The notes beneath the pieces are model-generated. The model made no database searches and was not told where the DNA came from. It worked only from the letters and a program-made list of their open reading frames with translations. DNA of 32,000 nt from Belliella calami (GTDB taxonomy: Bacteria > Bacteroidota > Bacteroidia > Cytophagales > Cyclobacteriaceae): assembly GCF_022549695.1 (NCBI RefSeq), contig NZ_JAKZGS010000004.1:77756-109755 (forward strand). Direction: 5' to 3'. Shown here in pieces: positions 2,594-20,423 of the stretch. Within the stretch, counting starts at the first letter, position 1; each line of letters starts with the position of its first letter. A program made the translations under genes and the position numbers.

Positions 2594-2688
2594 GACTGAC
2601 CGGGATTCTTAATACCATAAAAAATAAAAAAGCCGCGAAACAGAGTCTCACAGCTTTAGTCAATTAACAATAAACCCAAAATAACCAG

Positions 2689-2812
2689 CTGTAGGAGAAG
2701 GATTCGAACCTCCACGGGACAGTTAGGCAAAACACGAGCTCGATATTTGCTTTATCCTGGGACCCCACCCCCGAGACAGGAGGGCATGTCTGCCAATTTC
2801 ATCATCCTACAG
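2689..2812 (-). ncRNA. tRNA-like RNA gene, copy 1 (cloverleaf elements plus an oversized extra arm; isotype not assignable)
   Basis: Read on the minus strand: acceptor stem TGTAGGA/TCCTACA, U8, D-arm ATG-AAATTGGCAGA-CAT, hairpin CCCTC-CTGTCTC-GGGGG, and canonical T-arm GGAGG-TTCGAAT-CCTTC. About 51 nt lie between the anticodon-like arm and the T-arm, giving 124 nt in total. No CCA is encoded. Confidence 0.6.
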
Positions 2813-2859
2813 TATAATATTTTCAATTCAACTAGAAATCTTACATTTCTACAATTTGG

Positions 2860-2985
2860 CTGTAGGAGAAGGATTCGAACCTCCACGGAGCAGTTAGGCA
2901 AAAATACGAGCTCGATATTCGCTTTATTCTGGGATCTCCACCCCCGAGACAGGAGGGCTTGTCTGCCAATTTCAACATCCTACAA
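2860..2985 (-). ncRNA. tRNA-like RNA gene, copy 2 (tandem paralogue of 2689-2812)
   Basis: Same architecture, 171 nt downstream on the plus strand. The differences from copy 1 fall in predicted helices and are compensatory (D-stem A-T to T-A; GGGG/TCCC to GGAG/CTCC). Confidence 0.6.
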
Positions 2986-3356
2986 TTTGTTTTTTCAAAT
3001 TTTCGACCTTTTGTCTTTGTTTGATATTTCAAAGTTAAGAAAACATTCCTTCTATTAAAATTAATTCAACAAATAAGCTAAAAATTTACATAATAAATAC
3101 TTTATAGTGTCAAATGTTATCGATTCGTTAATTTTAATATTTTAATCCCAGTTAATTTTAGAAATATGGAAATGCTATTTTAGCTATTGTTCATTTGTCG
3201 AAAACATGATTTAGAGAAAGTGGAAGATCTTTTACCAAAAACTTCTACTCTTTTTGAGAATCTTCACAGAATAAAAACATTTTTATGGGTATCTGCAATG
3301 CTAGACATTCTTTTGGTCTAAGAAATCAAAAGTTGGATCCAAGACATGCTGAAAAA

Positions 3357-3879
3357 TTAAATCCTAAAGCAATGGGTGGGAGATGTCATGCCCAAATCAA
3401 AGCAAAATGTCTTGATTAGATATTTCTGCATTTTCTTTGATGCTGCGGCGGCCGAATGAAGTAAATTTGATCTGTGTCTACAATAAGTTCTAAGCTCTTC
3501 TGTCTGGCCATCTGGCAAAAAACTTCCAGTTAGTAACCCCAATGTGTGCAGTTTTTGAATCCCTGCCTGACGGCAGGCAGGCACTGACAGTCCAAGACAT
3601 CAGTCTTTTTACCTTTGATGTTTTTGGTGAACTTACCATTACATAATATAAGATGGAACCCTTTTGAAAGCAAGACTGCATAGAGATTTTGCCAGTATGT
3701 CCCTGTACTTTCCATCGCTATAGTTTTTACATTCTTTTCCTTCAACCAATCTGCCATAGCAAACAAATCTTGATTGAATACCCCAAATTCCCGAACATCA
3801 TGCTCGGTTTGACCTACTGCTACCCAGTGGGAGCGACTGCCGACATCACATGCGAAGCATTCATCGACACCAAATAAAA
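3357..3879 (-). pseudogene. IS110-family transposase (DEDD/RuvC-like N-terminal domain), decayed
   Basis: Joining the minus-strand frames gives LFGVDECFACDVGSRSHWVAVGQ...KTIAMESTGTYWQNLY...GKKTDVLDCQ // WIQKLHTLGLLTGSFLPDGQTEELRTYCRHRSNLL, the IS110-family signature. There is no start codon. The frame is broken at 3562-3581 by a GC palindrome (CCTGCCTG-ACGG-CAGGCAGG). There are stops further downstream, and the C-terminal domain is not recognisable. Confidence 0.75.
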
Positions 3880-4067
3880 ACTTTAATAGGAGATAATTCC
3901 CCTAGCCTGCGGATTGACGACTTCCATGGAGATAGATTCCTGTTCCATAAGATTAAGAATAGATAGGTCTCACAGGGGATGTGCTTTTGGCTAGAAAATA
4001 TTCTGAACAGCCTGTCCCGATAGCGAAGCGTATCGGGAGGGTATCTGGCTTTTTAAAGACAAATCCG

Positions 4068-4102
4068 CCACTGAAATCATCGCAAGTATCCCAACCAGAA
4101 TG
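4068..4102 (-). repeat. truncated attC-like half-site (one arm only)
   Basis: The plus strand reads CCGCCA-CTGA-AATCATCGCA-A-GTATCCC. This parallels the right arm of the full repeats (for example CCGCCA-TTGA-GCCAAACTCC-T-GTTATGG at 6285-6320). No partner arm is recognisable to the left. Confidence 0.4.
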
Positions 4103-4243
4103 GCGCCCATGCTCTTCGATTACTCGAGGGCAACATTTCTAAAATCGGCCTTGCTAAAAGGGTAGTAAATTACAAAAAATCTTGCCACGATGCTCTCAAA
4201 CGTTAGCTTACGAAATCAAGTTTTTTAATGTAGGGGGAATTGC

Positions 4244-4377
4244 TGGTAACAGCGGGATTCAGCTTGGAGACGGCGGGCTTTCGGAGCCGTTCGCTTCCAG
4301 CCTACTCTTAGCTTCTTAAAGATACTGAATTTTCAATTTACTCTGAACTGCCCGCTGGATCCAAGGTGATGTTGGCG
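4244..4377 (-). repeat. attC-like cassette recombination site (copy g, most divergent)
   Basis: TGGTAAC-[8 nt]-TCAGCTTGGA-GACG-GCGGGC ... CCCGC-TGGA-TCCAAGGTGA-T-GTTGGCG; 134 nt; the arms pair as in the other copies. Confidence 0.7.
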
Positions 4378-4388
4378 AAAGTTGTTTT

Positions 4389-4787
4389 TTATCTAGTAAC
4401 CCAGTTTTCTAACCTAATACCGGAGATTCTATGAAACTCTTTCAAGTTTTCTGTCACCATTATGAGGTCTTTTTCTATTGCTGTGCAACCAATCAAGAGG
4501 TCAAAATCACTAATCTGCAAGCCTATAGATCTTAATCTGGCTTTCTCTTTTCCATATAGGTAAATTGCGCTAAAAATTGGAAGGATAACAACTTGATTAG
4601 CAAACACTTCAATTAAATCAAGATTCTTTTGAGGGTTTTTACTGTTTTCAGCTCCAAAAACTAATTCTGCCAAAGTAATTTCTGAAATAGCAAAACTCTC
4701 AGTACCTAGCTGTTCAAACTTTTCTATCAATCCATATTTCCCCCTTAAAAAATGGGTACAAATATTAGTGTCTAAAAGATACTTCAT
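4389..4787 (-). CDS. vapC: PIN-domain ribonuclease toxin (VapC-like)
   Basis: 132 aa. The acidic PIN residues are in context (LLDTNI..., ITLAELVFGAE, SDFDLLIGCTA). A 4-nt overlap links it to the small upstream ORF. Confidence 0.85.
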   Translation of the reverse strand: MKYLLDTNICTHFLRGKYGLIEKFEQLGTESFAISEITLAELVFGAENSKNPQKNLDLIEVFANQVVILPIFSAIYLYGKEKARLRSIGLQISDFDLLIGCTAIEKDLIMVTENLKEFHRISGIRLENWVTR

Positions 4788-5041
4788 TCGAAACCAAGGT
4801 TTTCTGTTTTTTCTATTCTGGATTCTCTAATTTCTTTAATGATCTCGTCCGAATCTTTATCATCTTCCCATGCTCCAAAAAGTGTTCGTAAATCCACCTT
4901 CTCTTCTTTTATATCCAGTGACTCGGTCAATTTAATGATTAGTTTTTTCTTGGAAAGATTATCCAAACCTTTCAATAGACCAAAATACTTTTCTATTGCC
5001 TTGTTATTTAATGTGAGGTTTGCCATGCTTTTTTTCTTCAA
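4784..5041 (-). CDS. putative antitoxin partner of the PIN toxin
   Basis: 85 aa, translationally coupled (4-nt overlap) to the PIN gene and rich in charged residues. The start may instead be the ATG at 5026 (MANLTL...). Confidence 0.6.
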   Translation of the reverse strand: MKKKSMANLTLNNKAIEKYFGLLKGLDNLSKKKLIIKLTESLDIKEEKVDLRTLFGAWEDDKDSDEIIKEIRESRIEKTENLGFE

Positions 5042-5082
5042 TTTACGGAATTAATGGATTGATGGTCAAATGATTTAGAAAA

Positions 5083-5553
5083 TTAAATTCCCAACTCTCT
5101 TTTCTTTTTCTGAATCAAGTCTCCCATGTCACTAAAATCTTTTACAAAACCAGATGCTTTGATAAATTCATTGTCGGTATTAAACCAATAAACTTTATTA
5201 TCCCCTTTAATTTTCAATTTATACAAAGGAGGGTAAACAAACTGTATGAGAGAAAGGGATTCCACTTCCATCCAATTTATTTTCCTTTCATACTCTCCAT
5301 TCTTTATAATCACATTTTGGCCTCCTAATTTTACTATCACAAATTTATCCTTAATAGCAATAAATATTGGGAAGCAGACTATTCCTATCACTCCAAAAAC
5401 TAACGTGATAACGATGTTTTGTGCCATTTTCTCACCATTTACCCAGAATAACTCAGGAAAGAACCAAGACAGAAGGGACGTAAATAACATTATTATTCCT
5501 AAGCCTAGAAACAGATATTTCAGTATGTGGTGATATAGATTATTGCTTTCCAT
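5083..5553 (-). CDS. hypothetical membrane protein (two N-terminal TM helices plus a small soluble domain; topology resembles bacterial PH/DUF304-type proteins)
   Basis: 156 aa with two clear hydrophobic helices (LFLGLGIIMLFTSLLSWFF; IVITLVFGVIGIVCFPIFIAI). It is cassette-borne and has no family signature I can name with certainty. Confidence 0.55.
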   Translation of the reverse strand: MESNNLYHHILKYLFLGLGIIMLFTSLLSWFFPELFWVNGEKMAQNIVITLVFGVIGIVCFPIFIAIKDKFVIVKLGGQNVIIKNGEYERKINWMEVESLSLIQFVYPPLYKLKIKGDNKVYWFNTDNEFIKASGFVKDFSDMGDLIQKKKRELGI

Positions 5554-5570
5554 GGCTTTTCTTCAATTTT

Positions 5571-5702
5571 CGATAACGGTTTGCAGCTACCCGAAGGTGG
5601 CGATTTCGAAGCGATTCACTGTCCGTCAAGCAGAAACTTTGATAGAAGCACAAAGCTTGATTTAACCACTGAACCGCCACTTTTGGGTAGGTGCTGTTAT
5701 AG
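5571..5702 (-). repeat. attC-like cassette recombination site (copy a)
   Basis: CGATAAC-GGTTT-GCAGCTACCC-GAAG-GTGGCG ... CGCCAC-TTTT-GGGTAGGTGC-T-GTTATAG; 132 nt. Confidence 0.8.
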
Positions 5703-5711
5703 GGCGTTTTC

Positions 5712-6176
5712 TTATTTTCGAATAAATATGTTTCCAAAATTTCTGCTGCTCGCCATTACTTTGTCTTTGTCCGTTTTGCGTCTGTATCTCGTTCTATCAT
5801 CATTTAACAACTGCAATATTTCGTTTCTTGATTTCGCTACAATTGTATCTGTTTTCGTTTCGATTCTTAAATAGTCAGTCCGCAAGTCACTTTCCTTTAT
5901 TTTTACGTTAAACATCATTCCTGTAAAAATCGATAATATTGTCATTGAGCTGTCAGGCTTTAAAACAACAGTTGTACTGTCCGAAGTTTGATTGTTCGGA
6001 TAATTGTGGATTTGCTTTTTGTCAGAATAATCAAGTCCTGGTCGTACTGTCACCTTCGCTTCATTTGCTGAAGTGTTGTGAATTGTCAATACTTTAAAAC
6101 CTTCGCAACTTGTCAGAAGTATTACGGTTGACAGAAATGTCAGTAATTTCTTTATTCGTTTCATTTCACATTTCAT
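5712..6176 (-). CDS. hypothetical lipoprotein
   Basis: 154 aa. It has a signal peptide with a lipobox (LLTFLSTVILLTSC). It is the only ORF in its cassette. Confidence 0.6.
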   Translation of the reverse strand: MKCEMKRIKKLLTFLSTVILLTSCEGFKVLTIHNTSANEAKVTVRPGLDYSDKKQIHNYPNNQTSDSTTVVLKPDSSMTILSIFTGMMFNVKIKESDLRTDYLRIETKTDTIVAKSRNEILQLLNDDRTRYRRKTDKDKVMASSRNFGNIFIRK

Positions 6177-6188
6177 TTCTTAAATGCA

Positions 6189-6320
6189 CCATAACGTTTT
6201 GGCGCTTGGCGCAGTGGCGGATTTCGGAGCACAAAACTTTCATTTAACCACAAAAGTTGATGCGAGGTAGAATGTTCAATTAACCACGTTATCCGCCATT
6301 GAGCCAAACTCCTGTTATGG
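6189..6320 (-). repeat. attC-like cassette recombination site (copy b)
   Basis: CCATAAC-GTTTT-GGCGCTTGGC-GCAG-TGGCGG ... CCGCCA-TTGA-GCCAAACTCC-T-GTTATGG; 132 nt. Confidence 0.8.
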
Positions 6321-6339
6321 GCTGGGCTTTCTGCTTTTG

Positions 6340-7278
6340 TCATAAATCTGTTTCTCTTTTTACAACTACCATTTCATCAAATCCGTGTTTTATCAATAAC
6401 TTTTTCAATGTTGTAATAAATCGTCTTAATTCTCTTTCTAGGATTGAGTCGTAATCAGGACTGAGTTTATTAAAGTCATTTGGTAGTAAGTTTGAAATAG
6501 CATAATTTATTCCCGTGATTATTGTCGGGAAGTCTATGAATACTAGGGTTTCATCTTTTATTTGAGTATCAATACTGATATTTCTCGGTCTGCCTGCATA
6601 TTTGAAAGAAACATTTTTAGTGTCAATAGAAGATTTCAATCTCTCGAATTGAAGATTTACGTCATCATTGATTTTGTCAGGAACGATAATATTTAGTTTG
6701 CATTTTTTGTATTTAATTCCATCAAGTTCGTACCCATTATTTTCAATTAAATAGCGACAAGTTGGAACAATAAGATTTTCTAAATAAACGGAAGCTAATG
6801 TAGCAGAAGGAAAGAAGTTGATTTCATCATCTGAACTGGAAATGAAGAGGTCCTGTATTTGCTTAACTGCATTTTCAAAACTGCTGTCATTACCATTTTC
6901 AAAAACTGCCAATGACAATCCGCCAAAATCAGAGAGAAGCTTAATCTCCTTGTCTACTAGAAATGCACATTTAGAAGTTCCTAAACGACCTGTAAACAAA
7001 CCTAATTCAAATAGGACGTTATCTCTTGGTTGCAACATTACTTGACCCCTAAATTCGACTTTATCATCATTTGTGCCTAATAAAATTCCAAAGTCAAATT
7101 GTAAAGTCGCTTTAAGCAAATCAGATAGAAAATTCTGATTAATCTTAAAAACCGAAGTGTCCCAAACCTTTTCGTTCCAAATAGTTACATCAAAGTCTTT
7201 TGATAAAATTGCTTTGGCTTTCTCTGCTAATTTTAGTTCTTCGGACGAAGAACCTATGAAAAGTCTCTTTTTTATCAT
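6340..7278 (-). CDS. CBASS effector, TIR-like domain fused to a bacterial STING-like cyclic-dinucleotide sensor domain
   Basis: The N-terminus (RLFIGSSSE...[19 protein letters not shown]) has the TIR-like signature seen in CD-NTase-associated effectors. The C-terminus ([15 protein letters not shown]...GRPRNISID...[16 protein letters not shown]...ELRRF) resembles bacterial STING domains. It overlaps the upstream nucleotidyltransferase by ATGA. Confidence 0.7.
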
Positions 7279-8333
7279 AATCCAAGCGTATTTCTTAGGT
7301 CAACAAATATTCCTTCAACTTCACCAAGTAATAATTTCAAATTCTCCAGTTTTTCTGGGTTATATCTAAAAATATACTCTCTTCCATCTACAGAGATAAT
7401 GCTATCGGATTTAGTTTGATTTGTGCAGATTTCTTTAATTTGATAATAGATTACGGGAACGAGTTCATAAAATGAAAGTGTTTGATATTTATCTACTTCA
7501 ATGTCATAGCATATAGCATTTATATCAAAGCTGCTTAAATCTATTTCTTGATTGGAATTTGCTTTGGTATTCTTCAAAAAACGAATCATTCTTTTTAGTC
7601 TTCCATTAGTATCTGAACTTCTTTCATTAATTCGTTTAATACTAAGAAATGGGAAATCTTTCTTGCCTTTTGAATGGGTTTCTTTATTATAAACTTGAAT
7701 CCCACGATATTCTCCTTTGTCATTTATAACAGAAGATACATCATCATACCAATTGGCAATTACAACATCAACTTCTCGGTTTAGACTTTGATTTTTTATC
7801 TTGATTGATTTTGGTTTTGTGGTGTCGCATATATCATATACATCTTCTAAAATTGTTTCACTATCAAGTCTTAATTGTCTCAAATCCTGAAGTGCGTTTC
7901 CTTGATACGAGCTTGTATTAACTTCCTTAACCATTTTATCAATGGAAACCTGTCTGTATCTATTTTTCTGCTCTACTGATTCAAGTATCTGCTTTATTTT
8001 AGGGGCATCATAAGTATAAAATTTGTCACAAATTGTAAGCAAGTCAATATCACTATAACCTCTAATATGTGTGTCGGTCATTACAGAGCCTTGATATTTA
8101 AAAACAACGTCAGTAAGTTTTTTTGATAAATGTTCTTTAACCCTTTCTCCTGCGTCTTTACTTTTTTGGGTGTATTCAGGTTCGACACCTTTCATTGCAA
8201 GTCTAATGTATGTCAATACTTCACTGTATGAAACAGTCGCAAGTTCATCAGAAAATGATTTTCTCAGTGCGAAGTTCTCTGGGTTGATTCGTCCCTTGAT
8301 ACTTTCTGTAAGTAGTTTATAATTTTTTGCCAT
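7275..8333 (-). CDS. cGAS/DncV-like nucleotidyltransferase (CD-NTase, SMODS-type)
   Basis: 352 aa with the Pol-beta-type catalytic set: YQGS-x11-DIDLL and a downstream REVDVVIAN. Translationally coupled to the TIR-STING-like gene. Confidence 0.7.
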
Positions 8334-8368
8334 TGTTCTATTTTATTGTGGTGTCGTTTTAGCCTTGC

Positions 8369-8500
8369 CCATAACGTTTTGGCGCTTGGCGAAGAAGCGG
8401 ATTTCGAAGCACCAAACTGTCTGCCAGCACTGAACTTGATACGAAGCACAAAGCTTCATTTAAGTACTGAACCCGCTTTTTTGCCAAACGCCTGTTATGC
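8369..8500 (-). repeat. attC-like cassette recombination site (copy c)
   Basis: CCATAAC-GTTTT-GGCGCTTGGC-GAAG-AAGCGG ... CCGCTT-TTTT-GCCAAACGCC-T-GTTATGC; 132 nt. Four AGCAC-type direct repeats start at 8408, 8426, 8445 and 8463. Confidence 0.85.
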
Positions 8501-8534
8501 GGTCGGCTTTCTTTTCTGTAGTCTGTGCTTTCCT

Positions 8535-9329
8535 TCATTTTGTCAAACTTAAGTATTTTTCAAAAAGTCTCGTGAACCCATATTCAAATTTCGGTTGTGT
8601 TTCGTCAACTATAACCCTTAAAGTTTCAATATCCTTTACAAGTCCTGTAATTCTTTCTCCTTTGTCTGAAAGGTCAGAAGAACTGTTTGTGAAGTCCTTT
8701 CTATATTTTCCAAAGTCGGGATAACCAACTTTGAAAGTGAAATCTTGATTTCCAACTGTGTCTGTAAACGTAAACGAACCTTCTTTAAGGTCTAAGTCGT
8801 AATGAAAGTCTGAATTGTTGGTCACAACCATTTTGTCATATATGAAATAATTGAACTCTTTATGAATTGTATCGCAACTGCCGTTTGTGTCAATGAAGCA
8901 ATACCTTACGCTATATGTTTCTGTTGGTAAATTGAATTTGTGGTAAAGTGCTGTAATCATCAAAAAATTTCTTTCTTCAGTCGCTTTGAAAATATCAACT
9001 GGTTGTAAATTGTAATAGTTGCTTGAAACTTGTCTTGCAATCCTAATTTGATTTGTTGGAAAATACTCGCCTTTTGGATAGAAGTATGTCAATAATGCAA
9101 AGTCAAGCAAGAGTATTATTAATAAAAATGTGGTCTTGCTGAATTTAATCTTGTCGCTGAACTTGTAATAAGTCCAAGCACCTATTCCGCCAATTAAAAA
9201 TATGATTGGGTAATAGACCAATAAACAAAGTCCGTAGCCACAAGGTGTCGGAAACAAACTCAATGTCAAAATTGGGATTGTCACACAGACCAAAAAAATG
9301 ATTATTGCAGGTACTTTCTTTTTATTCAT
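8535..9329 (-). CDS. hypothetical membrane protein (three N-terminal TM helices plus a soluble domain of about 170 aa)
   Basis: 264 aa. The hydrophobic N-terminus includes IIIFLVCVTIPILTLSLF, LLVYYPIIFLIGGIGAW and FLLIILLLDFALLTYF. No recognisable family. Single-ORF cassette. Confidence 0.55.
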   Translation of the reverse strand: MNKKKVPAIIIFLVCVTIPILTLSLFPTPCGYGLCLLVYYPIIFLIGGIGAWTYYKFSDKIKFSKTTFLLIILLLDFALLTYFYPKGEYFPTNQIRIARQVSSNYYNLQPVDIFKATEERNFLMITALYHKFNLPTETYSVRYCFIDTNGSCDTIHKEFNYFIYDKMVVTNNSDFHYDLDLKEGSFTFTDTVGNQDFTFKVGYPDFGKYRKDFTNSSSDLSDKGERITGLVKDIETLRVIVDETQPKFEYGFTRLFEKYLSLTK

Positions 9330-9362
9330 TGTCTGTCGTTGTGTGTCGTCTTTTAAGCTGCC

Positions 9363-9494
9363 GCATAACGTTTTGCAGCTACACGCAGGTGGGGATTTTT
9401 AGCACTGAACTTTATTAAAAGTACAGAATTTTGATTTAGCACTTCACTTTCATAGAAGCACTGAACCCCCACTTGCGTGTAGGTGCTGTTATGC
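9363..9494 (-). repeat. attC-like cassette recombination site (copy d)
   Basis: GCATAAC-GTTTT-GCAGCTACAC-GCAG-GTGGGG ... CCCCAC-TTGC-GTGTAGGTGC-T-GTTATGC; 132 nt. AGCAC-type direct repeats start at 9401, 9420, 9438 and 9457. Confidence 0.85.
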
Positions 9495-9502
9495 AACGTT
9501 TT

Positions 9503-11212
9503 TTATAATTCTTTTATTCTTTTCAGTAGTCGTTTATATGAATTAGGTAAATTTTTATGTGGCAAATTGTTAATTACGTGTAATAGAGTTTCGAGTTTTT
9601 TAAGTGACTTTTCTCTAATGTTTAAAATTTCATTCGTGTTTCTATTTGCAATTGGTACATTCAAAAAATTATAAATTAAATTTTGTGCTATTGTGGAAGC
9701 AACTAAATCCATTTCTAAATTGTATTTCATACAAATCACATCATATCTTTCTGAAATATCTAATGCACGACTATGATTTGATGTCAACAGTAATTCCAAT
9801 TGTTGTCGAGAGTTTTGATGGTGAAAAATCTCGTTAATCAAAGTTTCATTTTTGAATATGGTTTGATAATTAAAAAAGCCCGAACCATATCTGCTATTTG
9901 ACTTTTCTCCATTTTGATAGTTAAAGAAAAAGTCTTTATCAATAATTATCGTTTTCGGTATTTCCAAATCCCTTAAAAGGTAATATGCATATTTTAGTGA
10001 TGTAACGCCATCTAACTGTAAGATAGAAATCCCTTTTCTTTCGATTTTAACTCCTTTATTTTCTAAAAGTGTACTAAAAACTCCTGAATCAATTGTACTT
10101 TCCGTTACTAAAACGTGATTCGCAAAGAAAAACTCAGAGTTTCTAAATTTATGAAACTTGTCATACTGCAATCTTTGCAAATTGTAATGAATCCAAAAAT
10201 CGTCCCTTAACTGTAATAATTTACTCTTAAAGGCTCTTTGATTGTCTTTGACTTTTCTTATCAGTAAAATTTTTGTGTGGTCAAGTTGGTCAACAAGAAT
10301 AGTTGAGTGGGTTGTGAAAAGCACTTGAATATTACTGTTTTGAACTTGGTCAAAGAGCGTATAAATTAGTTCTTTTTGACCTTGTGGGTGTAAATTCGTT
10401 TCAGGTTCTTCAAGACCTATAATAAAATTTGTGTGTTTTAATTCGGCTAAATATCTGTAGATAGCGATAGCGACTAAACTTTGTATTCCACTACCACAAT
10501 CTTTTATATTAAATTCTTTGCCATCTTCATTAATTAATATCTCTAAATCATTTAAAAAAAGTTCAAAAGATATTGGAATGTTTGTTCCAATTTTGAATTC
10601 GAACCCTTTATTGGTTAAATACCGACCTTCTATTCCTTGAGCTACTTTTTTTAACGCATTTTTATTCAAATAATCAAATGCATCTTTAACTTTAGGTGTT
10701 AGTGTATCTCTCTTAGCTGTATGATTTGCAAAAAAGACTTTTAATAGTTCTCTCAAAACAGATTCACCATTTCTTTGATAAAATTCCGCAGTCCTATCTG
10801 TTGGTATCAGAACAAATTGCACATCTAAATTTAATTCATTCACTAAGTTATCTTGTGCTATTTCAAAAGTACCATTATTAAATACAAAATACTCCAATTT
10901 ACCACGTGTTTTATTGAACTCTTGTTTAATTTTAATAATGTCATTTACAATGTAAGGAGTGTAAATGACCTTGTTTGGTACATTGGCAAATGAAATTATT
11001 ATCTTCGGAATAGCTCTATTTGTAGAGTATAAATTTACACCTGAAAAGTAATATTGAAGTTCAATTTGAGGATTAAAAAAAGAGTTTAATGCTCTAAGTA
11101 TTGCTGTTTTGCCTGAATTGTTCTGTCCAACAATTCCAAGAATATCTTCAACATCGAAACTGCCTGATTCGATTGACCTAAATTTCGATATTTCTACTTT
11201 GCGTATTTTCAT
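9503..11212 (-). CDS. OLD-family nuclease (ABC-type ATPase + Toprim), single-gene (class 1-like)
   Basis: 569 aa. Walker A is GQNNSGKT, and the Walker B / D-loop region is IIGLEEPETNLHP. The C-terminal Toprim-type acidic motifs are HVLVTESTIDSG and TIIIDKDFF. It starts 10 nt after the preceding repeat. Confidence 0.75.
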   Translation of the reverse strand: MKIRKVEISKFRSIESGSFDVEDILGIVGQNNSGKTAILRALNSFFNPQIELQYYFSGVNLYSTNRAIPKIIISFANVPNKVIYTPYIVNDIIKIKQEFNKTRGKLEYFVFNNGTFEIAQDNLVNELNLDVQFVLIPTDRTAEFYQRNGESVLRELLKVFFANHTAKRDTLTPKVKDAFDYLNKNALKKVAQGIEGRYLTNKGFEFKIGTNIPISFELFLNDLEILINEDGKEFNIKDCGSGIQSLVAIAIYRYLAELKHTNFIIGLEEPETNLHPQGQKELIYTLFDQVQNSNIQVLFTTHSTILVDQLDHTKILLIRKVKDNQRAFKSKLLQLRDDFWIHYNLQRLQYDKFHKFRNSEFFFANHVLVTESTIDSGVFSTLLENKGVKIERKGISILQLDGVTSLKYAYYLLRDLEIPKTIIIDKDFFFNYQNGEKSNSRYGSGFFNYQTIFKNETLINEIFHHQNSRQQLELLLTSNHSRALDISERYDVICMKYNLEMDLVASTIAQNLIYNFLNVPIANRNTNEILNIREKSLKKLETLLHVINNLPHKNLPNSYKRLLKRIKEL

Positions 11213-11222
11213 TTAAAATGTT

Positions 11223-11354
11223 GCATAACGTTTTGCAGCTTGGCGAAGTGGCGGATTTTGAAGCACTTACTTTCAATTTTGCACAAATGTTTATTAGAAA
11301 TCCAAATGTTCAATTTAGCACCGAACCCGCCATTTTGCCAAACTGCTGTTACCA
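11223..11354 (-). repeat. attC-like cassette recombination site (copy e)
   Basis: GCATAAC-GTTTT-GCAGCTTGGC-GAAG-TGGCGG ... CCGCCA-TTTT-GCCAAACTGC-T-GTTACCA; 132 nt. Confidence 0.85.
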
Positions 11355-11370
11355 GCTGGCGTTTTTTCGG

Positions 11371-12003
11371 TTAGTTAAAGTTATAAAGATAACCAATTTC
11401 GTTTAGGTCAGCTTCAAGTTGTTCCCAATTTTCAAGTTCCTCAACGATTGTCAAAACCATATCTTTTGTCAGCGTTTTTCCGTTATAAATTTCTGTCACG
11501 GTTTCCAATGGAATTCCACTTTCTATAAAACTTTCGTCAAAATATTCTGTTGCCCAATCAACATAAGTTTGTGGATTTCCGTCAAAGATGCTCAACATTT
11601 CGTTAGAATTATCTTCGTAATTTTCGATTTGTCCAGTTTTCCAAGCTTTATTTTCGGTTGTCCAAACGCAAAATGTTGTTCCGATTTTTTTTACAGGTTC
11701 TCCAAAAATAAATTCGTCAAAAATAGAAGGTAAATCTTTTGTTAGTTTCTCTTTTTCTTGCTGTTGATATTCGTGAGCAAAACCATTTATTACACAGCCG
11801 TCTGCTCTAAATAAAATTAGCATTTGGTCGCCCGAACCATTTCGCATTTCGCAAAATTCTTCATTGTCTGCCCATTTATTGTTGTATGAATAATATCGAT
11901 ATTCCCATTCTTGTGAAAGAATTGCGTCTAAAACAGAAATTGCTTTGCAAATTGTCTGTAATTTTTGTCTGTCAGGTAAGTTTAGTTCTTTGGTTGAAAT
12001 CAT
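11371..12003 (-). CDS. hypothetical cytoplasmic protein (first cassette of the array)
   Basis: 210 aa, acidic, with no TM helix or signal peptide and no catalytic motif that I recognise. Confidence 0.55.
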   Translation of the reverse strand: MISTKELNLPDRQKLQTICKAISVLDAILSQEWEYRYYSYNNKWADNEEFCEMRNGSGDQMLILFRADGCVINGFAHEYQQQEKEKLTKDLPSIFDEFIFGEPVKKIGTTFCVWTTENKAWKTGQIENYEDNSNEMLSIFDGNPQTYVDWATEYFDESFIESGIPLETVTEIYNGKTLTKDMVLTIVEELENWEQLEADLNEIGYLYNFN

Positions 12004-12126
12004 TTGTTGTCTTATGTTTTTTCGTTTCGGTGTGTGTCGTTATACGCTTGCTGGTAACTTATATATCTGTCTGGAAAAACCAGACTTTAAATACCAATAA
12101 TAAGAAATATGTCTGGTTTTTCAGCT
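12004..12126 (-). other. candidate attI / array-proximal junction
   Basis: GCTGGTAAC at 12050-12058 is the exact reverse complement of GTTACCAGC at the far end of cassette 1's own repeat (11348-11356). The flanking inverted repeat is GAAAAACCAGAC (12074-12085) / GTCTGGTTTTTC (12111-12122), with an extra GTCTGG at 12069-12074. Confidence 0.55.
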
Positions 12127-13245
12127 CTATAAATCTAAATCTTCTAGCGGACTTGTAATCTGCTGAATAGACTTTTGGCTTACATGGGTATAGATCTCCG
12201 TTGTCTTGCTACTTTTATGTCCCAAAAGCTCCTGAATATACCTCAAATCTGTGCCTCTCTCCAGTAAATGCGTAGCGTAAGAATGTCTAAGCCAATGTGG
12301 TGTTACGGTTTTTTTTATACCTGCCTTTTTAACAGCATTTTTTAAAACCTCTGCCAAACTTTTTTCACTATAAGAGCCTCCTTTTTGCCCTTCAAAAATG
12401 TATTCTTTGGGCTTATAGGCTTTATAATATTTTTCGAGTTCAAGAATAAGAGGGGCGGGTAATGTTACCACTCTGTCTTTTTTTCCTTTTGCTTGTTTTA
12501 CCAATAACAAGCCTCTTTCTCTTTGAATGTGCTGAAATTTCAAAGCAAGTAATTCACCTCTTCTGAGACCACAAGCGTAAAGAAACATTAGCATTAATCG
12601 ATGCTTCAAATTCGTTGGGGCATTTAAAATCTTAGAAACCTCCTCTTTACTCAACACGTTTGGTAATAACTTCTCTCTTTTTGGCCTATAGACTATTTCT
12701 GGATTGAATTTGATACCTCTTCTATTCTGGAAAAATAATTTGATGCCATTTACCACCTGGTTTTGATACGAACTTGAATAACCTTTGGCTAAAATATACT
12801 CCTTATTGAATTTTTCAAGGTCTTCATTTTCAATTTCTTCGATAGCTTTATTACTCAAAAATCTTAAAAATATTCTTACAGCATCCTTATAGGTCTTTAC
12901 AGTACTTTTACTATACCGCTTATTCCGCATCCAATCTTCAAATTTACCAATCTCAATTCCCTGAGATGCGGTCAAATGAGGTAAACCTGGAGGGATCTTT
13001 GGAATCTCTACCTTTTTTAATGCTCTATAATCCAAACTTACCTTTCCTTCGAAAAATCCAATCATCTCGGTAATCCTTTCATCAGCGTAACTCACCCACC
13101 ATACCTTCTTTTTGGTATCCCAATTACAGCCTGGAAACTGCTTTACCATCTCCTTTAACTCAAAATCATAAGGAAACTCAATCCTAATAATTGGATTTTT
13201 TCCCATATAGTCATTTTTCAAAACCAGCTGTTTCATAAAAATCAT
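12127..13245 (-). CDS. tyrosine recombinase, Xer-like catalytic domain with an extra N-terminal domain; putative cassette-array integrase
   Basis: 372 aa. The catalytic residues are in context: ACGLRRGELL (R), KGKKDRVV (K), HWLRHSYATHLL (H-x-x-R), LLGHKSSKTTEIYTHV (H, Y), and a C-terminal SPLEDL. Only 87 aa separate the R-box from HWLRH. An alternative start is the ATG at 13236. Confidence 0.85.
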   Translation of the reverse strand: MIFMKQLVLKNDYMGKNPIIRIEFPYDFELKEMVKQFPGCNWDTKKKVWWVSYADERITEMIGFFEGKVSLDYRALKKVEIPKIPPGLPHLTASQGIEIGKFEDWMRNKRYSKSTVKTYKDAVRIFLRFLSNKAIEEIENEDLEKFNKEYILAKGYSSSYQNQVVNGIKLFFQNRRGIKFNPEIVYRPKREKLLPNVLSKEEVSKILNAPTNLKHRLMLMFLYACGLRRGELLALKFQHIQRERGLLLVKQAKGKKDRVVTLPAPLILELEKYYKAYKPKEYIFEGQKGGSYSEKSLAEVLKNAVKKAGIKKTVTPHWLRHSYATHLLERGTDLRYIQELLGHKSSKTTEIYTHVSQKSIQQITSPLEDLDL

Positions 13246-13303
13246 CTTTAAAAATAAACTAACTCAATTTAAGAAATTTGGCTCAAAATGTGTGTCATTT
13301 ATC

Positions 13304-13341
13304 AAAAAAGCCTCGGGTTGACCCGAGGCTTTTCATTTTTT
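13304..13341. terminator. bidirectional rho-independent terminator
   Basis: AAAAAA-GCCTCGGG-TTGA-CCCGAGGC-TTTTCATTTTTT, an 8-bp GC stem with A/T runs on both sides. It lies between the acyl-CoA dehydrogenase stop and the recombinase start. Confidence 0.8.
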
Positions 13342-15852: not shown

Positions 15853-17026
15853 ATTTCAAAAGCTCAAACACTCCAGCTACTCCTTGTCCACCTCCGACAC
15901 AGGCAGTGACTAGGCCGTGTTTTTTGTTTTGACGGCGGAGTTCGCTGAAGAGTTGGACAGAAAGCTTAGCACCTGTGCAGCCAAGTGGGTGACCAAGGGC
16001 TACTGCACCACCGTTGACATTGACGATGTCTGGATTCATATCCAATGACTTCATTACTGCCAATCCCTGCGCTGCAAATGCTTCGTTCAATTCTATAAGA
16101 TCAATATCATTCAAAGTCAATCCTGCTTGCTTCAGTGCTTTTGGAACAGCCTCTTTTGGTCCGATTCCCATGATTCTTGGTTCTACACCTGCCACCGAAT
16201 AGGACATCAGGCGGGCGATTGGCTCCAAGTTAAGTTCTTTTACCATTCGCTCTGACATCACCACCACAAAGGCGGCTCCATCGGATGTTTGGGAGGAATT
16301 CCCTGCAGTCACTTGTCCACCTTGCTTGAATGCTGGTCTTAGATTGGACAAACCTTCCAAAGAGGTTCCTTTTCTTGGACCTTCATCTGTATCTACAGTG
16401 AACTTCCTTGTTTTCCTTTTTCCATTTTCGTCCAAATAGGTCTCTTCGACTTCTATCGGAACGATTTCATCTTTGAACTTTCCAGCTGCAATTGCCGCCA
16501 AAGCTTTGTCATGGGACTTTACCGAAAATTCATCAGCCTGCTCTCTAGTAATGTCATATTCTTTTGCCAATTCTTCTGCTGTAAGACCCATGCTTAGGTA
16601 ATAATCAGGGGTTTCTGAGGCAATTTTCCAGTTGAGCGCTGTCTTGTATCCCATCATTGGTAGGAGCGACATAGACTCAGTTCCTCCAGCGATGATACAG
16701 TCAGCCATTCCCGCTTTGATCTTGCCAACTGCCAGGGCGATCGCTTCCAATCCGGAACCGCAATATCTGTTGATGATAAAACCTGGGTTTTCTACTCCCA
16801 AAGCCAAAAGGGAAATCATCCTTCCCATTTGCATACCTTGTTCCCCTTCAGGGATTGCGTTTCCGACAATGAGGTCATCGACCATTTTATTTTCCAATCC
16901 TGGTGTATTGGCTACCAAATGCTTAATCACATCTGACGCCAGATCATCTGGTCGATAAAATCTAAAGCCACCTTTTTTGGCCTTTCCTACTGCTGATCTA
17001 TATCCATTTACTATATAAGCTTCCAT
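15851..17026 (-). CDS. acetyl-CoA C-acyltransferase (3-ketoacyl-CoA thiolase)
   Basis: 391 aa. It has the active-site Cys context INRYCGSGLEA and the C-terminal motifs NGGAVALGHPLGCTG and CVGGGQG. Confidence 0.92.
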   Translation of the reverse strand: MEAYIVNGYRSAVGKAKKGGFRFYRPDDLASDVIKHLVANTPGLENKMVDDLIVGNAIPEGEQGMQMGRMISLLALGVENPGFIINRYCGSGLEAIALAVGKIKAGMADCIIAGGTESMSLLPMMGYKTALNWKIASETPDYYLSMGLTAEELAKEYDITREQADEFSVKSHDKALAAIAAGKFKDEIVPIEVEETYLDENGKRKTRKFTVDTDEGPRKGTSLEGLSNLRPAFKQGGQVTAGNSSQTSDGAAFVVVMSERMVKELNLEPIARLMSYSVAGVEPRIMGIGPKEAVPKALKQAGLTLNDIDLIELNEAFAAQGLAVMKSLDMNPDIVNVNGGAVALGHPLGCTGAKLSVQLFSELRRQNKKHGLVTACVGGGQGVAGVFELLK

Positions 17027-17077
17027 TTTGTGTATCTATTGAGGTTAATTTATTATTTCAGGTTTTGTTATTAACTG

Positions 17078-17279: not shown

Positions 17280-19683
17280 AATTTCTCAGCGGTTTTCCTT
17301 TGAACAGAATACTATGAATTCTCTCTAGGGTCTTTTTCTCTCCTGTCAAACTCAAGAACGCTTCTCTTTCAAGATCCAATAGAAACTGCTCGCTTACCAA
17401 TGTTGGTGCAGAAAGGTCTCCTCCTGACATTACCCAAGCTAATTTTCTGGCGATTTTGGCATCGTGATCGGAGATGTATTTACCATACTGCATCCCTGTG
17501 ATTCCAGCTTCGAATAAGGCTAGTGAAGTTTTCCCCAAGACTTTGATATCTGTCTGCTGAATCGGTTGTGTATATCCAGCGTCATACAATGCCAAGACTT
17601 TAGCTTTCGCTTCTGCAAGCTGTCTTTTTCTGTTCAGCGTGATTGAATCTTTTACTTGCAAATAGCCCAGTCCTCTTGCCTCTTCGGCTGATGTGGAAAC
17701 TTTTGCGGTAGCGATATTCATAAAATATTCCTGAAGCCTGTTCAATTCTACATCACCATCTTTGATATCATTGGAAAATCTCAAGGTCATCTCCTTGGTT
17801 CCTCCTCCAGCTGGGATCAAACCAACACCAAATTCTACCAATCCCATGTACAATTCGGCATGTGCCTGTACAGCATCGGCATGAAGTGACAATTCACATC
17901 CACCGCCCAATGCCATATTGTGTGGAGCTACTACCACAGGGACAGATGAATATCTTGTCCGCATCATGGTATTTTGGAATCCTGCTATCATCAGGTTGAT
18001 TTCATCATACTCCTGATCTCCAGCAAACATAAAGAGCATTGCCAAGTTGGCACCTGCGGAGAAATTTGGTCCTTCGTTGCCTATTACCAATCCTTTGTAG
18101 GACTTTTCTGCCATTGTAATGGCTGTATTGATGCCTTCGATAACTTCCTGACCCATGGAATTCATTTTGGTATGGAATTCCAATCCTATCACATCATCAC
18201 CAAGGTCATAAATAGTCGCTCCTGCATTGCCCCAAACTTTCTTGTTCGCAGCTTTGAGTGTATCAAGAATGATGAATTCTTCTTGTCCAGGAATCGGAAG
18301 GTAAGTTTTGGACTTGACATCATAAAACCTCTTCTGTCCGCCTTCCACTTTATAGAATGAATCATTTCCTGCTTCAAGCATTTCGTGAACCCAGTCCGCA
18401 GCTTTTTCTCCTGCTGCTTCCATTTTTTCTACTGTCTCTTTAACTCCAAGCACGTCCCAAGTCTCAAAAGGTCCAAGTTCCCAACCAAATCCTGCACAAA
18501 CTGCCTGATCGATTCTGTAGGTTTCATCTGAAATTTCAGGGATTCTATGTGAGCAGTATTTGAACAAGTCATAAAATGATGCTCTATAAAATTCACCTGC
18601 TTTATCATCAAAGTTGACCAAGAATTTGATCCTCTTTTTCAAATCTTCAATTTCTTTGGATGCTTCCAAAGCTTTGAATTTTGGTTTTTCAGCATCTTTA
18701 TATTCGAAGGTTTTCAGATCGAGTTCCTTCAGTTCTTTTCTGCCATCATCATGACGGATCATTTTGAAATATCCCTGACCCGTTTTGTCACCCCACCATT
18801 TATTGTCATAGAGCACTTTCACTATATTGGGCAGCTGGAATTTGTCCTTAGATTCATCGTGCTCCAGTGCTTTGTAAAGGTTATTGGCTACATTTACGGT
18901 AGTGTCCAATCCTACTACATCCATTGTGCGGAAGGTAGCAGACTTGGCTCGACCGATGATAGTTCCGGTCAACTTATCTACCTCCGATACTCCCAAGCCC
19001 ATTTTTTCAATGGCATGCATGCCTGAAATAATCGCATAAACTCCGATTCTATTGGCAATAAAAGCAGGAGTATCTTTACAAAGTACAGTTTCTTTACCTA
19101 GGTGTCTATCTCCATAATCCATTAGGAAATCGATGATTTTAGGGTTGGTTTTCGGTCCAGGAATAATTTCCAACAACCTTAGGTATCTTGGAGGATTGAA
19201 AAAGTGTGTTCCAGCGAAATTAACCTGAAAATCCTCAGATCTTCCTTCACACATCAAATGCATAGGAATTCCAGAAGTATTTGAAGTGATCAAAGTTCCT
19301 GGTTTTCTATATTTTTCCACCTTTTCAAAGAGTGACTGCTTGATATCCAACCTTTCCACTACGACTTCCATCACCCAATCATAATCTTTGATTTTGGGTA
19401 GATCATCGTCAAAATTTCCTGTGGTAATTCTATCAACATTCTTAGCATCGTAAAGTGATGCTGGTTTGTTTTTTAATGTGGATTGCAAAGCCGAATTGAC
19501 AATTCTGTTTCTCACAGTTTTGTCCTCAAGGGTCAATCCTCTTTTTTGTTCATCCTCGTTGAGTTCACGTGGTATGATATCAAGGAGCAACACCTGCACG
19601 CCAATATTGGCAAAATGGCATGCGATCCTTGAACCCATCACACCTGAACCTAAAATGGCAACTTTCTGAATTGTTCTTTTCAT
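17278..19683 (-). CDS. bifunctional 3-hydroxyacyl-CoA dehydrogenase / enoyl-CoA hydratase (FadB-like)
   Basis: 801 aa. The N-terminus has an NAD-binding ILGSGVMGSRIA 3HCDH domain. The C-terminus has a crotonase fold (GPNFSAGANL...ALGGGCEL). Confidence 0.9.
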   Translation of the reverse strand: MKRTIQKVAILGSGVMGSRIACHFANIGVQVLLLDIIPRELNEDEQKRGLTLEDKTVRNRIVNSALQSTLKNKPASLYDAKNVDRITTGNFDDDLPKIKDYDWVMEVVVERLDIKQSLFEKVEKYRKPGTLITSNTSGIPMHLMCEGRSEDFQVNFAGTHFFNPPRYLRLLEIIPGPKTNPKIIDFLMDYGDRHLGKETVLCKDTPAFIANRIGVYAIISGMHAIEKMGLGVSEVDKLTGTIIGRAKSATFRTMDVVGLDTTVNVANNLYKALEHDESKDKFQLPNIVKVLYDNKWWGDKTGQGYFKMIRHDDGRKELKELDLKTFEYKDAEKPKFKALEASKEIEDLKKRIKFLVNFDDKAGEFYRASFYDLFKYCSHRIPEISDETYRIDQAVCAGFGWELGPFETWDVLGVKETVEKMEAAGEKAADWVHEMLEAGNDSFYKVEGGQKRFYDVKSKTYLPIPGQEEFIILDTLKAANKKVWGNAGATIYDLGDDVIGLEFHTKMNSMGQEVIEGINTAITMAEKSYKGLVIGNEGPNFSAGANLAMLFMFAGDQEYDEINLMIAGFQNTMMRTRYSSVPVVVAPHNMALGGGCELSLHADAVQAHAELYMGLVEFGVGLIPAGGGTKEMTLRFSNDIKDGDVELNRLQEYFMNIATAKVSTSAEEARGLGYLQVKDSITLNRKRQLAEAKAKVLALYDAGYTQPIQQTDIKVLGKTSLALFEAGITGMQYGKYISDHDAKIARKLAWVMSGGDLSAPTLVSEQFLLDLEREAFLSLTGEKKTLERIHSILFKGKPLRN

Positions 19684-19697
19684 AAGATTATATTGGT

Positions 19698-20180
19698 TTA
19701 GAGTTCGTACACTTTACGCTTGTACTGATTTGGGTTTACGGTTTCTAGTTGAATTTTTTCTATTGTTTGATTGATTTTTTGGAATACTTGAAAGAAAATT
19801 TCCAATTCTTCATCACTTACTACCTCTCTTACGGAAAGATTGAAATCTTTAATGGTTTCGACAGAAATTTCTTTTTTCCTCTTCCCTTCTTCGGTAAGAT
19901 ATATGCGTACTGATCTTTTGTCTACAGAATCCTGTTTTCTATAAATCAGGCCTTTTTCTTCCATTGTCTTTAGCATTCTTGTCAAACTACGTGCTTCCAA
20001 TCCCATCAGAGGAGCAATTTTGGTTGCCGGAGTGCCTTCTTTAGAATTTATATTGATCAAAACATAGCCAATAGAAGCTGTAAAATCTTCCAAAGCGGCT
20101 TTTTGATTGTACATTCTTGATATAGCGTGCCAAGAACTTTTGATGTGGTAGTCTACCGTTTCTTCACGTTTCATGGGCAT
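19698..20180 (-). CDS. MarR-family transcriptional regulator
   Basis: 160 aa. The winged-HTH region is GTPATKIAPLMGLEARSLTRMLKTMEEKGLIYRKQDSVDKRSVRIYLTEEGK. Confidence 0.85.
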   Translation of the reverse strand: MPMKREETVDYHIKSSWHAISRMYNQKAALEDFTASIGYVLININSKEGTPATKIAPLMGLEARSLTRMLKTMEEKGLIYRKQDSVDKRSVRIYLTEEGKRKKEISVETIKDFNLSVREVVSDEELEIFFQVFQKINQTIEKIQLETVNPNQYKRKVYEL

Positions 20181-20214
20181 AATAAAATTTACATCCCTAA
20201 TTTAAGAAAAATTT

Positions 20215-20252
20215 GTTATGCATACATACTATTATTAAAAAAAGTTATGCAT
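20215..20252. promoter_or_regulatory. candidate MarR operator (two GTTATGCAT repeats)
   Basis: GTTATGCAT occurs at 20215-20223 and 20244-20252 (29-nt spacing). Each contains the palindrome ATGCAT. The sites lie 35-70 nt upstream of the marR start. Confidence 0.35.
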
Positions 20253-20423
20253 GCAGAGGAAATTTAAAAATGTTTTAATTTACAAAATCAAAATTTTAGT
20301 CTGTTAGAAAGCTTTATCATACCCTTAAAAGTACAATACACGGTAGAAAGCTTTTAATTTCAAAACAAGTTTTTAAAATGGACAAAGTGTTAAAAAGTTG
20401 GAAAGTTCAAAGTTGGAAAGTTG

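Follow-up and report, generated by a model that had tools for sequence, protein, structure and literature searches.

A tyrosine recombinase with a HARP-like N-terminal domain and no IntI insertion probably services a non-canonical chromosomal integron in Belliella calami

In practice, integrons are defined by the insertion that characterises the integrase IntI and by an attC model trained mostly on Proteobacteria, and under this definition the Bacteroidota are nearly integron-free. In the 'reverse' integrons of Treponema denticola, the integrase is reportedly transcribed in the same sense as its cassettes, with attI on the 3' side of its gene. IntegronFinder 2.0 reports Salinibacter ruber as the only complete integron in Bacteroidetes, and the paper on archaeal integrons again takes the additional domain to be what defines IntI. 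Here, we describe a locus of Belliella calami in a window of 32,000 nt (contig NZ_JAKZGS010000004.1, positions 77,756 to 109,755 of the forward strand; all coordinates below are those of the window). On its minus strand the window carries a tyrosine recombinase (integrase) gene, an attI and six co-oriented cassettes, each of which ends in an attC-like site of approximately 132 nt. We read this locus as a sedentary chromosomal integron platform, non-canonical in type and serviced by this integrase, and from the sequence comparisons below we give this reading a probability of about 0.8.

The attI and the attC-like sites of the array are listed here, with scores from R1, a covariance model built from five window repeats. 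In motifs, a slash marks the junction.

12048-12126, minus strand: attI, with two direct CCAGACA, one inverted GTCTGG and ATATATAA/GTTACCAGC (crossover G at 12058)
11223-11354, minus strand: attC-like site 1, 132 nt (R1 146.5 bits)
9363-9494, minus strand: attC-like site 2 (R1 136.7 bits; bottom strand -31.3 kcal/mol, z = -5.5)
8369-8500, minus strand: attC-like site 3 (R1 147.8 bits)
6189-6320, minus strand: attC-like site 4 (R1 144 bits)
5571-5702, minus strand: attC-like site 5 (R1 141 bits)
4244-4377, minus strand: attC-like site 6, divergent, closing the array, with the R' side GTTACCAGCAA (R1 42.8 bits, E = 1e-8)

The repeat spans 132 nt from the R'' box to the R' box, the same length that an earlier, sequence-only reading of the window had given it. 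AAC and GTT are nearly invariant among the attC-like sites, and the distance between them was 122-127 nt in 50 of 64 sites (mode 124) and uniform across distant genera, with a minority of short (49-91 nt) and long (166-178 nt) sites. Each of the five window repeats forms a long hairpin, and the bottom strand (the plus strand of the window) was the more stable in 5/5. RNAalifold run on these five repeats gave 28 pairs, 11 of them with compensatory changes. When 63 sites from the window and from other genomes were compared, the 28 pairs were retained with 89% of cells paired and with compensatory changes in 23 pairs; the inner 19-bp L helix was 93.9% paired, and double changes occurred in 18 of its 19 pairs. 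The covariation score was 0.604, as against 0.084 or less when the partners were slid, and it was reached by 0/500 shuffles. In the hairpin, an R helix of 9-10 bp is followed by a T-rich bulge of 4 nt, an L helix of 19 bp and a loop that varies. The bulge, (K)TTT, is one-sided, lies on the bottom strand between the R and L helices and has no opposing bases in 60-62 of 63 sites; two G.T wobbles on the bottom strand are near-invariant (61/63 and 58/63 sites). Isolated extrahelical L-box bases are not the design here, their place being taken by the 4-nt bulge plus a 1x1 mismatch. By using DNA parameters, we found the bottom strand to be more stable in 45/60 sites (p = 2e-6). Rfam gave no match in the window at gathering scores, nor at E up to 1 on 2500-4500. 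Taken together, the comparison of these sites marks the hairpin as a structure under selection, in which the structure is kept and the sequence is free.

The junctions between cassettes carry a second signal. The 7 nt on the GTT side of a site matched the reverse complement of the 7 nt before AAC in the next site at 6.19/7 (36 consecutive pairs), versus 3.20/7 for the same comparison within one site and 2.94/7 for random pairs. Such swapped R-box extensions are, by their pattern, the trace left when circular cassettes enter through a crossover at C/GTT or close to it, and they fix the position of the crossover.

The attI lies approximately 70 nt past the integrase stop codon, on the 3' side, and matches the reverse complement of the R'' extension of attC-like site 1 at 9/9 positions. 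In approximately 23/32 loci, an exact 9/9 match to the R'' extension of the first site was present within approximately 145 nt past the integrase, preceded by the conserved TATAWRYRA/GTT. Of the 71 loci long enough to be judged, 47 had the motif TATAWNNNA/GTT past the integrase, at a median distance of 103 nt. Between Belliella, Shivajiella and Mongoliitalea, the attI region can be aligned as far as ATAA/GTTA, and the sequences bear no relation to one another right beyond that point. Exact matches to the direct and inverted 7-mers of attI occurred in 11 and 10 of 47 sites, respectively, versus approximately 5% in shuffles; by this comparison the enrichment appears real and the exact-match criterion too strict, and the attI repeats are described qualitatively here. 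We also observed that 11 nt (GTTACCAGCAA) at the junction of attI and cassette 1 (12048-12058) recur at the R' side of the last attC (4240-4250), at the far end of the array. An insertion duplication was considered for this identity and rejected: GCAA (positions 8-11) is consensus, and GTTACC recurs elsewhere, being present at the attI junctions of three other loci (L037, L053 and L054). The recurrence may be due to chance or may be a trace of the original empty attI.

The integrase has at least 587 relatives in a collection of one genome per species, and the R1 model was run on 80 loci (L001-L080) around integrase homologues from many Bacteroidota families. It detected 65 sites in 246 kb downstream of the homologues versus 2 in 613 kb upstream, an enrichment of approximately 80-fold, and all sites share one orientation relative to the integrase. 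The sequence-only reading had asked whether homologues are always followed by such repeat arrays, and had held that the adjacency would be fortuitous if they never were. Among loci with at least 1.5 kb of downstream sequence, 26/37 contained an R1 match, and the counts of 65 and 2 run counter to a fortuitous adjacency. Loci lacking an R1 match often carry their own divergent repeat families of the same design, L055, L070 and L079 among them; in L055, for instance, there are nine copies of ...TAACAAGCGGTATAGG...CCATACCGCCGACCGTTA.... In 43 of the 80 loci, less than 1.5 kb follows the integrase before the contig ends, and the upstream flanks are usually complete (draft and metagenome-assembled genome contigs). 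Contig breaks right past the integrase are expected if repeats follow it, and the arrays probably break assemblies, so that they are under-represented in metagenome bins. In Shivajiella indica, an integrase with 81% identity lies in the same neighbourhood (acyl-CoA synthetase, MarR, fadB, thiolase and acyl-CoA dehydrogenase) and has four attC sites, with cassettes entirely different from those of Belliella. One copy of the family was found on a plasmid of Chryseobacterium sp. SNU WT5 (NZ_CP041688.1, L081), with five sites downstream. The association, the junction footprint, the attI and the synteny with turnover are four independent lines which indicate that the integrase very probably services the array, and they support the earlier proposal of cassette capture outside canonical integrons.

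The plasmid array has features of its own. It contains an intact IS110 (16068-17069) and, at 18491-20349 on the bottom strand, a group II intron (Rfam RF02001 and RF00029; ltrA), the 5' end of which abuts the L'' arm of an attC-like site at approximately 20350. This intron recalls the group IIC introns of canonical integrons, which target attC.

The integrase gene and the parts of its product are as follows.

12127-13245, minus strand: integrase (tyrosine recombinase) gene, 372 aa in the list of open reading frames (ORFs)
13021-13236, minus strand: HARP-like domain (aa 4-75) of topology beta-beta-alpha-beta-beta-alpha-beta, from predicted local distance difference test (pLDDT) values, Pfam, Foldseek and a profile search
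12724-12945, minus strand: SAM-like core-binding domain (aa 101-174; Pfam Phage_int_SAM_4, E = 9e-15)
12175-12657, minus strand: catalytic domain (aa 197-357; Pfam Phage_integrase, E = 3e-40)
12370-12420, minus strand: short linker (aa 276-292) where IntI has the additional domain of approximately 45 aa (2a3v and IntI1 alignments, spacing)

In NCBI and in all homologues the protein starts at M4 (nt 13236, MKQLV...), which gives 369 aa, and 13236 is the probable true start. The product is 100% identical to a protein of Belliella sp. DSM 107340. The sequence-only reading had recognised a catalytic R...K...HxxR...H...Y set, and all six residues were located, at R228 (GLRRGE), K253 (KGKKDR), H317 and R320 (HWLRH), H343 (LLGH) and Y352 (EIYTH); the set is conserved across 20 integrase homologues and intact in the window ORF. 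The same reading had counted 87 aa from the R-box to HWLRH and had concluded that the IntI insertion is missing. The interval measures 88 aa (R228-H317), so that the number needs correction, and its Xer-like spacing holds: the corresponding interval is 130 aa in IntI1 of plasmid R100, 95 aa in XerD of Escherichia coli and 91 aa in XerC. In the HMMER alignment with VchIntIA (2a3v), residues 103-275 of the integrase correspond to 10-182 of the chain and residues 293-368 to 243-318, with 183-242 of the chain skipped, and by the alignments with VchIntIA and IntI1 approximately 43 aa of the IntI insertion are without a counterpart. MAFFT alignment with IntI1, four IntI1 relatives, XerC, XerD and two XerA proteins showed that the family is Xer-short in the insertion region. 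The integron integrase model TIGR02249, used here as a proxy for intI_Cterm of IntegronFinder, matched the integrase with 203 bits (E = 5e-60), under its cut-off of 265 bits; the match is split in two, with profile positions 180-255 left out. The model is matched by all 20 family members (best E 7.3e-66); only the score of the window protein was compared with the cut-off. The earlier reading had named one outcome that would overturn it, a protein that proves to be a bona fide IntI once properly aligned, and after alignment the insertion is still absent and TIGR02249 still under its cut-off.

The relation of the family to IntI and Xer is less simple. The best curated hidden Markov model (HMM) for the integrase was archaeal XerA (NF040815, XerA_Arch), with 230 bits above a cut-off of 220, and the equivalog cut-offs of XerD (198 bits, cut-off 330) and XerC (186 bits, cut-off 335) were both widely missed; the ranking of the models by E-value was identical over all 20 family members. 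The nearest solved structures, by sequence and by fold, were XerA (4a8e and 5hxy), with VchIntIA (2a3v) close after, and a C-terminal SPL motif is common to the integrase and VchIntIA. In a neighbour-joining tree of 271 shared columns, the family (100% bootstrap) and IntI1/VchIntIA were separated from XerA and XerC/D with 99% bootstrap. This tree is small, with thin sampling of IntI (the IntI1 search gave only close relatives of at least 74% identity) and possible long-branch effects, and that the family groups with IntI rather than Xer is an indication only. The description of the enzyme as Xer-like, made from the sequence alone, thus fits its architecture and best HMM and does not fit the tree. 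The same reading had left open whether the system converged on integrons or diverged early from them. Smyshlyaev et al. (2021; PMC8138268) describe the insertion as 'not fully conserved' within their integron-like subgroup, and because of this remark and the small neighbour-joining tree we favour a family that diverged early from integrons or lost the insertion over one that converged on them. The NCBI label of the homologues, 'site-specific tyrosine recombinase/integron integrase', comes from the Prokaryotic Genome Annotation Pipeline via the XerA model and is a side-effect of naming with no analysis behind it.

The first residues of the integrase, approximately 95 aa ahead of the SAM-like domain, had been noticed in the sequence-only reading as an N-terminal extension, and the start of the Pfam SAM match at residue 101 and the structure prediction agree with this. 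The extension was predicted confidently (pLDDT 80-91, and 87-91 in the full-length model), and a Pfam scan of it gave no significant domain. Below the 25-bit cut-off, Pfam HARP (PF07443) matched with 17 bits (E = 0.0035) and DUF5710 with E = 0.006, and such sub-threshold matches to HARP and DUF5710 recur in many family members. The top PDB match of the domain in Foldseek was the HARP domain of SMARCAL1 (4o66; probability 0.89, E = 0.04), which the title of that entry calls the substrate-recognition domain of SMARCAL1. The next matches were to the N-terminal damage-recognition domain of XPB, including the complex of XPB, Bax1 and forked DNA. A profile of the N-terminal domain, searched against 1.84 billion representatives, gave 1090 matches at E of 1e-3 or less; it matches SNF2 helicases at E of approximately 1e-10 to 1e-12 where Pfam calls HARP above threshold, as in one SNF2 helicase (P0346) with the profile match at 7-41 and Pfam HARP at 6-40 (45 bits). 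By these comparisons, of which the profile search is the strongest evidence, the N-terminal domain is a probable HARP homologue. Among the matches, three tyrosine recombinases of 553-789 aa (P0264, P0302 and P0316) carry 3-4 tandem HARP-like copies before the SAM and catalytic domains. A role of the domain as a sequence-specific arm-binding domain for the attI repeats was also considered; the strong conservation of the domain, set against attI repeats that vary between lineages, makes this role less likely.

From these features, we infer a pathway in which the integrase is the catalyst. It would excise cassettes as circles by attC x attC recombination, and the circles would be inserted at attI, with the crossover at the conserved C/GTT (AAC on the bottom strand). 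The substrate would be attC folded as a single-stranded bottom-strand hairpin: the integrase would bind this hairpin, cleave AA/C of the R' box and, like the integrases of canonical integrons, swap a single strand with either attI or a second attC. Strand and orientation could be chosen through the one-sided bulge and the G.T wobbles. In SMARCAL1, HARP recognises forked DNA or junctions of single- and double-stranded DNA. Because the IntI insertion that reads extrahelical bases is absent, we propose that the HARP domain may read the branched or bulged shape of the DNA in its place. An insertion-less Xer enzyme reportedly recombines a folded single-stranded hairpin with one strand exchange in the integration of CTX phage, which would be a precedent for the use of a folded single strand by such an enzyme. 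With regard to transcription, a perfect 12-bp G+C-rich palindrome with flanking T and A runs, shaped like a bidirectional terminator, lies at 13300-13340 between the integrase gene and the acyl-CoA dehydrogenase gene upstream of it, and the integrase probably has its own promoter. A conserved inverted repeat of attI sits between the integrase stop codon and cassette 1. Since no standard terminator was called in this interval, cassette 1 could possibly be expressed by read-through from the integrase gene.

Several points weigh against an integron serviced by this integrase. Of the 37 loci with long downstream sequence, 11 contained no R1 match, and three of the loci lacking a match (L011, L045 and L080) also showed no obvious repeats. 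When the nine cassette proteins were compared with all loci by tblastn, no shared cassette was found, only a distant OLD homologue, and in a self-BLAST of one array (L009) no cassette was duplicated, although R-box extensions recur in it. Because no identical cassette occurs in two places, mobility is deduced here from the junction structure and the turnover of content, and recombination at this locus is predicted from sequence. The HARP assignment draws on sub-threshold Pfam scores and a Foldseek E-value of 0.04, and only the profile search is strong. Furthermore, the IntI insertion is regarded as necessary for attC recombination (Messier and Roy 2001, as cited in the paper on archaeal integrons).

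Among the alternatives that keep the integrase at work on the array, the sites could recombine as double-stranded imperfect palindromes with two-strand exchange, as Xer does at dif. The Xer-like architecture, which lacks the IntI insertion, and an attI that looks double-stranded, with direct and inverted binding motifs, would suit such a mechanism, and according to Escudero et al. (2016), IntI itself keeps an ancestral double-strand exchange activity. However, sites of the same array differ freely in stem sequence and yet remain paired, with double changes in 18/19 pairs. Only the folded bottom strand has the near-invariant G.T wobbles and the one-sided 4-nt bulge, and this strand folds better than the top; we therefore hold double-strand exchange to be unlikely. 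The plasmid group II intron sits in the bottom strand immediately 3' of such a hairpin, a position that points the same way, as some introns target DNA stem-loops. The array could also be a fossil, built by such a system earlier and static now in this genome, a view to which the lack of duplicated or shared cassettes, the IS110 fragments at the array end and the divergent last attC (42.8 bits) lend some colour. It is quite improbable, given that the integrase ORF is intact with all catalytic residues, that five attC sites score 137-148 bits and that attI is conserved across genera with completely different cassette content.

The remaining two alternatives deny either the novelty of the integrase or its link to the array. 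That the locus is a canonical integron, with a bona fide IntI whose additional domain was overlooked by eye, might be argued from the name 'integron integrase' on NCBI homologues, the TIGR02249 match at E = 5e-60, the small tree and the C-terminal SPL motif in common with VchIntIA. It is already contradicted by the absence of the insertion in proper IntI1 and VchIntIA alignments and by the TIGR02249 match of 203 bits in two pieces, under the cut-off of 265; the family is, moreover, common in a phylum with one complete integron in the IntegronFinder 2.0 report, and we find this explanation scarcely credible. We regard it as equally far-fetched that a housekeeping Xer, or the integrase of some other element, lies by accident next to repeats akin to repetitive extragenic palindromes (REPs), terminators or miniature inverted-repeat transposable elements (MITEs), even though XerA is the best curated HMM and the repeats are hairpins that follow genes in a terminator-like position. 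The repeats are enriched approximately 80-fold downstream, and oriented, in many Bacteroidota families, which already contradicts a fortuitous adjacency; the spacing between the integrase and the conserved attI is fixed, the swapped R-box extensions are a mark of recombination that neither REPs nor terminators would produce, and Xer proteins lack the extra HARP-like domain. A non-canonical integron platform serviced by this integrase accordingly remains our preferred reading.

The cassettes of the window are listed below.

11229-12057, minus strand: cassette 1 (829 nt), ORF 11371-12003 (210 aa, no assigned function) and attC-like site 1
9369-11228, minus strand: cassette 2 (1860 nt), a single gene, 9503-11212, for an OLD-family ATPase/TOPRIM nuclease (Pfam AAA_15 and OLD-like_TOPRIM; PADLOC Old, E = 4.9e-46)
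8375-9368, minus strand: cassette 3 (994 nt), 264-aa membrane protein, 8535-9329
6195-8374, minus strand: cassette 4 (2180 nt), a cyclic-oligonucleotide-based anti-phage signalling system (CBASS), with CD-NTase at 7275-8333 and TIR-STING effector at 6340-7278
5577-6194, minus strand: cassette 5 (618 nt), 154-aa putative lipoprotein, 5712-6176
4250-5576, minus strand: cassette 6 (1327 nt), membrane protein of 156 aa (5083-5553), putative antitoxin of 85 aa (4784-5041) and PIN toxin (4389-4787)

The integrase gene and all nine cassette ORFs lie on the minus strand, in line with the co-orientation stated in the sequence-only reading, and the longest ORF was co-oriented with the integrase in 38/41 inter-site segments. 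G+C content was 0.30-0.36 in the array versus 0.39-0.45 in the flanking fatty-acid oxidation genes. The CBASS genes of cassette 4 matched PADLOC Cyclase (E = 8.6e-159) and TIR effector (E = 3.7e-119) as well as Pfam prok_STING and CAP12-PCTIR_TIR, and this cassette is predicted to pack a whole two-gene defence system into one unit. The PIN toxin of cassette 6 (Pfam PIN, E = 3.5e-11) overlaps the small ORF upstream of it, with which it likely forms a VapBC-type pair; toxin-antitoxin pairs stabilise chromosomal integron arrays. This pair and an unrelated membrane protein share the cassette with no attC between them. Just past the array end, at 3357-3766 on the minus strand, broken IS110-family transposase ORFs (DEDD_Tnp_IS110) were observed. 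Two tandem copies of approximately 172 nt (84-96% identical) lie at 2688-3001, and their minus-strand end resembles the T-arm and acceptor stem of a tRNA (GGAGGTTCGAATCCTTCTCCTACAGC). Neither ARAGORN nor Rfam calls an RNA gene in these copies, and ARAGORN finds no tRNA in the window.

The design of the Belliella locus is apparently repeated over hundreds of Bacteroidota species and missed by standard integron searches. In the full-text literature searched, which leaves subscription journals mostly uncovered, no description of the family, its attI, its sites or its HARP domain was found. Whether the Bacteroidota own an ancient, phylum-wide integron lineage, with a HARP recombinase, no IntI domain, a 3' attI and bulged sites of approximately 132 nt that are invisible to IntegronFinder, is to our minds evenly balanced. 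If they do, a large cassette pool, with CBASS/STING and OLD defence genes in it, would be uncatalogued. Surveys of resistance and defence would then miss a gene-capture platform, found on at least one plasmid, in a major phylum that takes in soil and water bacteria, fish pathogens and gut relatives. The additional domain would then not be required for cassette capture on folded hairpin sites, and the lineage may show integrases before, or without, the insertion. It would offer a living comparison for the route from Xer-like enzymes to integron integrases, a route treated by Escudero et al. (2016). The fusion of HARP and recombinase would also provide a testable idea of how the shape of DNA is read without the IntI insertion.

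With regard to known systems, the locus shares much with canonical integrons (class 1 and Vibrio cholerae). In both, a tyrosine recombinase adjoins attI; the cassettes are mostly single-gene and co-oriented, with toxin-antitoxin pairs and defence systems among them; an imperfect-palindrome AAC...GTT site, of the same polarity to the ORF, closes each cassette; each site takes its R' half from the cassette that follows; folding favours the bottom strand over the top; and vertical inheritance of the platform goes together with turnover of its content. The junction of attI1 of R100 (L082), AAACAAAG/TTA, resembles that of the family: attI1 reads CCCTAAAACAAAG/TTA and the family consensus TATAAACAAG/TTR, both with an A-rich AAACAA before the crossover, offset by one base. 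This likeness may be homology or coincidence. In contrast to canonical integrons, the integrase lacks the IntI additional domain, falls under the TIGR02249 cut-off and carries an N-terminal HARP-like domain; attI follows the integrase gene on its 3' side, where canonical integrons have it upstream of a divergent gene; the asymmetry of the sites is a one-sided 4-nt bulge rather than isolated extrahelical bases; site length is very uniform (AAC-to-GTT mode 124 nt); and the family occurs in Bacteroidota, where IntegronFinder reports almost nothing. Treponema-type reverse integrons belong to other phyla and reportedly have a canonical IntI with the additional domain and no HARP domain; given their reported arrangement, co-orientation of integrase and cassettes would not be unique to this family. 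With Xer (XerA, and XerC/D at dif), the integrase has in common a core-binding and catalytic core without the insertion, and XerA is both its best curated HMM and its best PDB match; however, Xer acts at a single dif site, has no extra N-terminal domain and is not followed by arrays, the XerC and XerD cut-offs are missed, and the small tree sets the family with IntI. In SMARCAL1-type annealing helicases (4o66), the HARP domain agrees with the integrase N-terminus in fold and sequence profile, but it is joined there to an SNF2 motor and here to a tyrosine recombinase. Proteins of this kind may have been binned in the integron-like subgroup of Smyshlyaev et al. (2021; PMC8138268), although no arrays, attI, attC-like sites or N-terminal domain are described for such members. 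Judged by these comparisons, the Belliella element is best described as a putative integron variant, with the same logic and crossover triplet but another recombinase architecture and site geometry.

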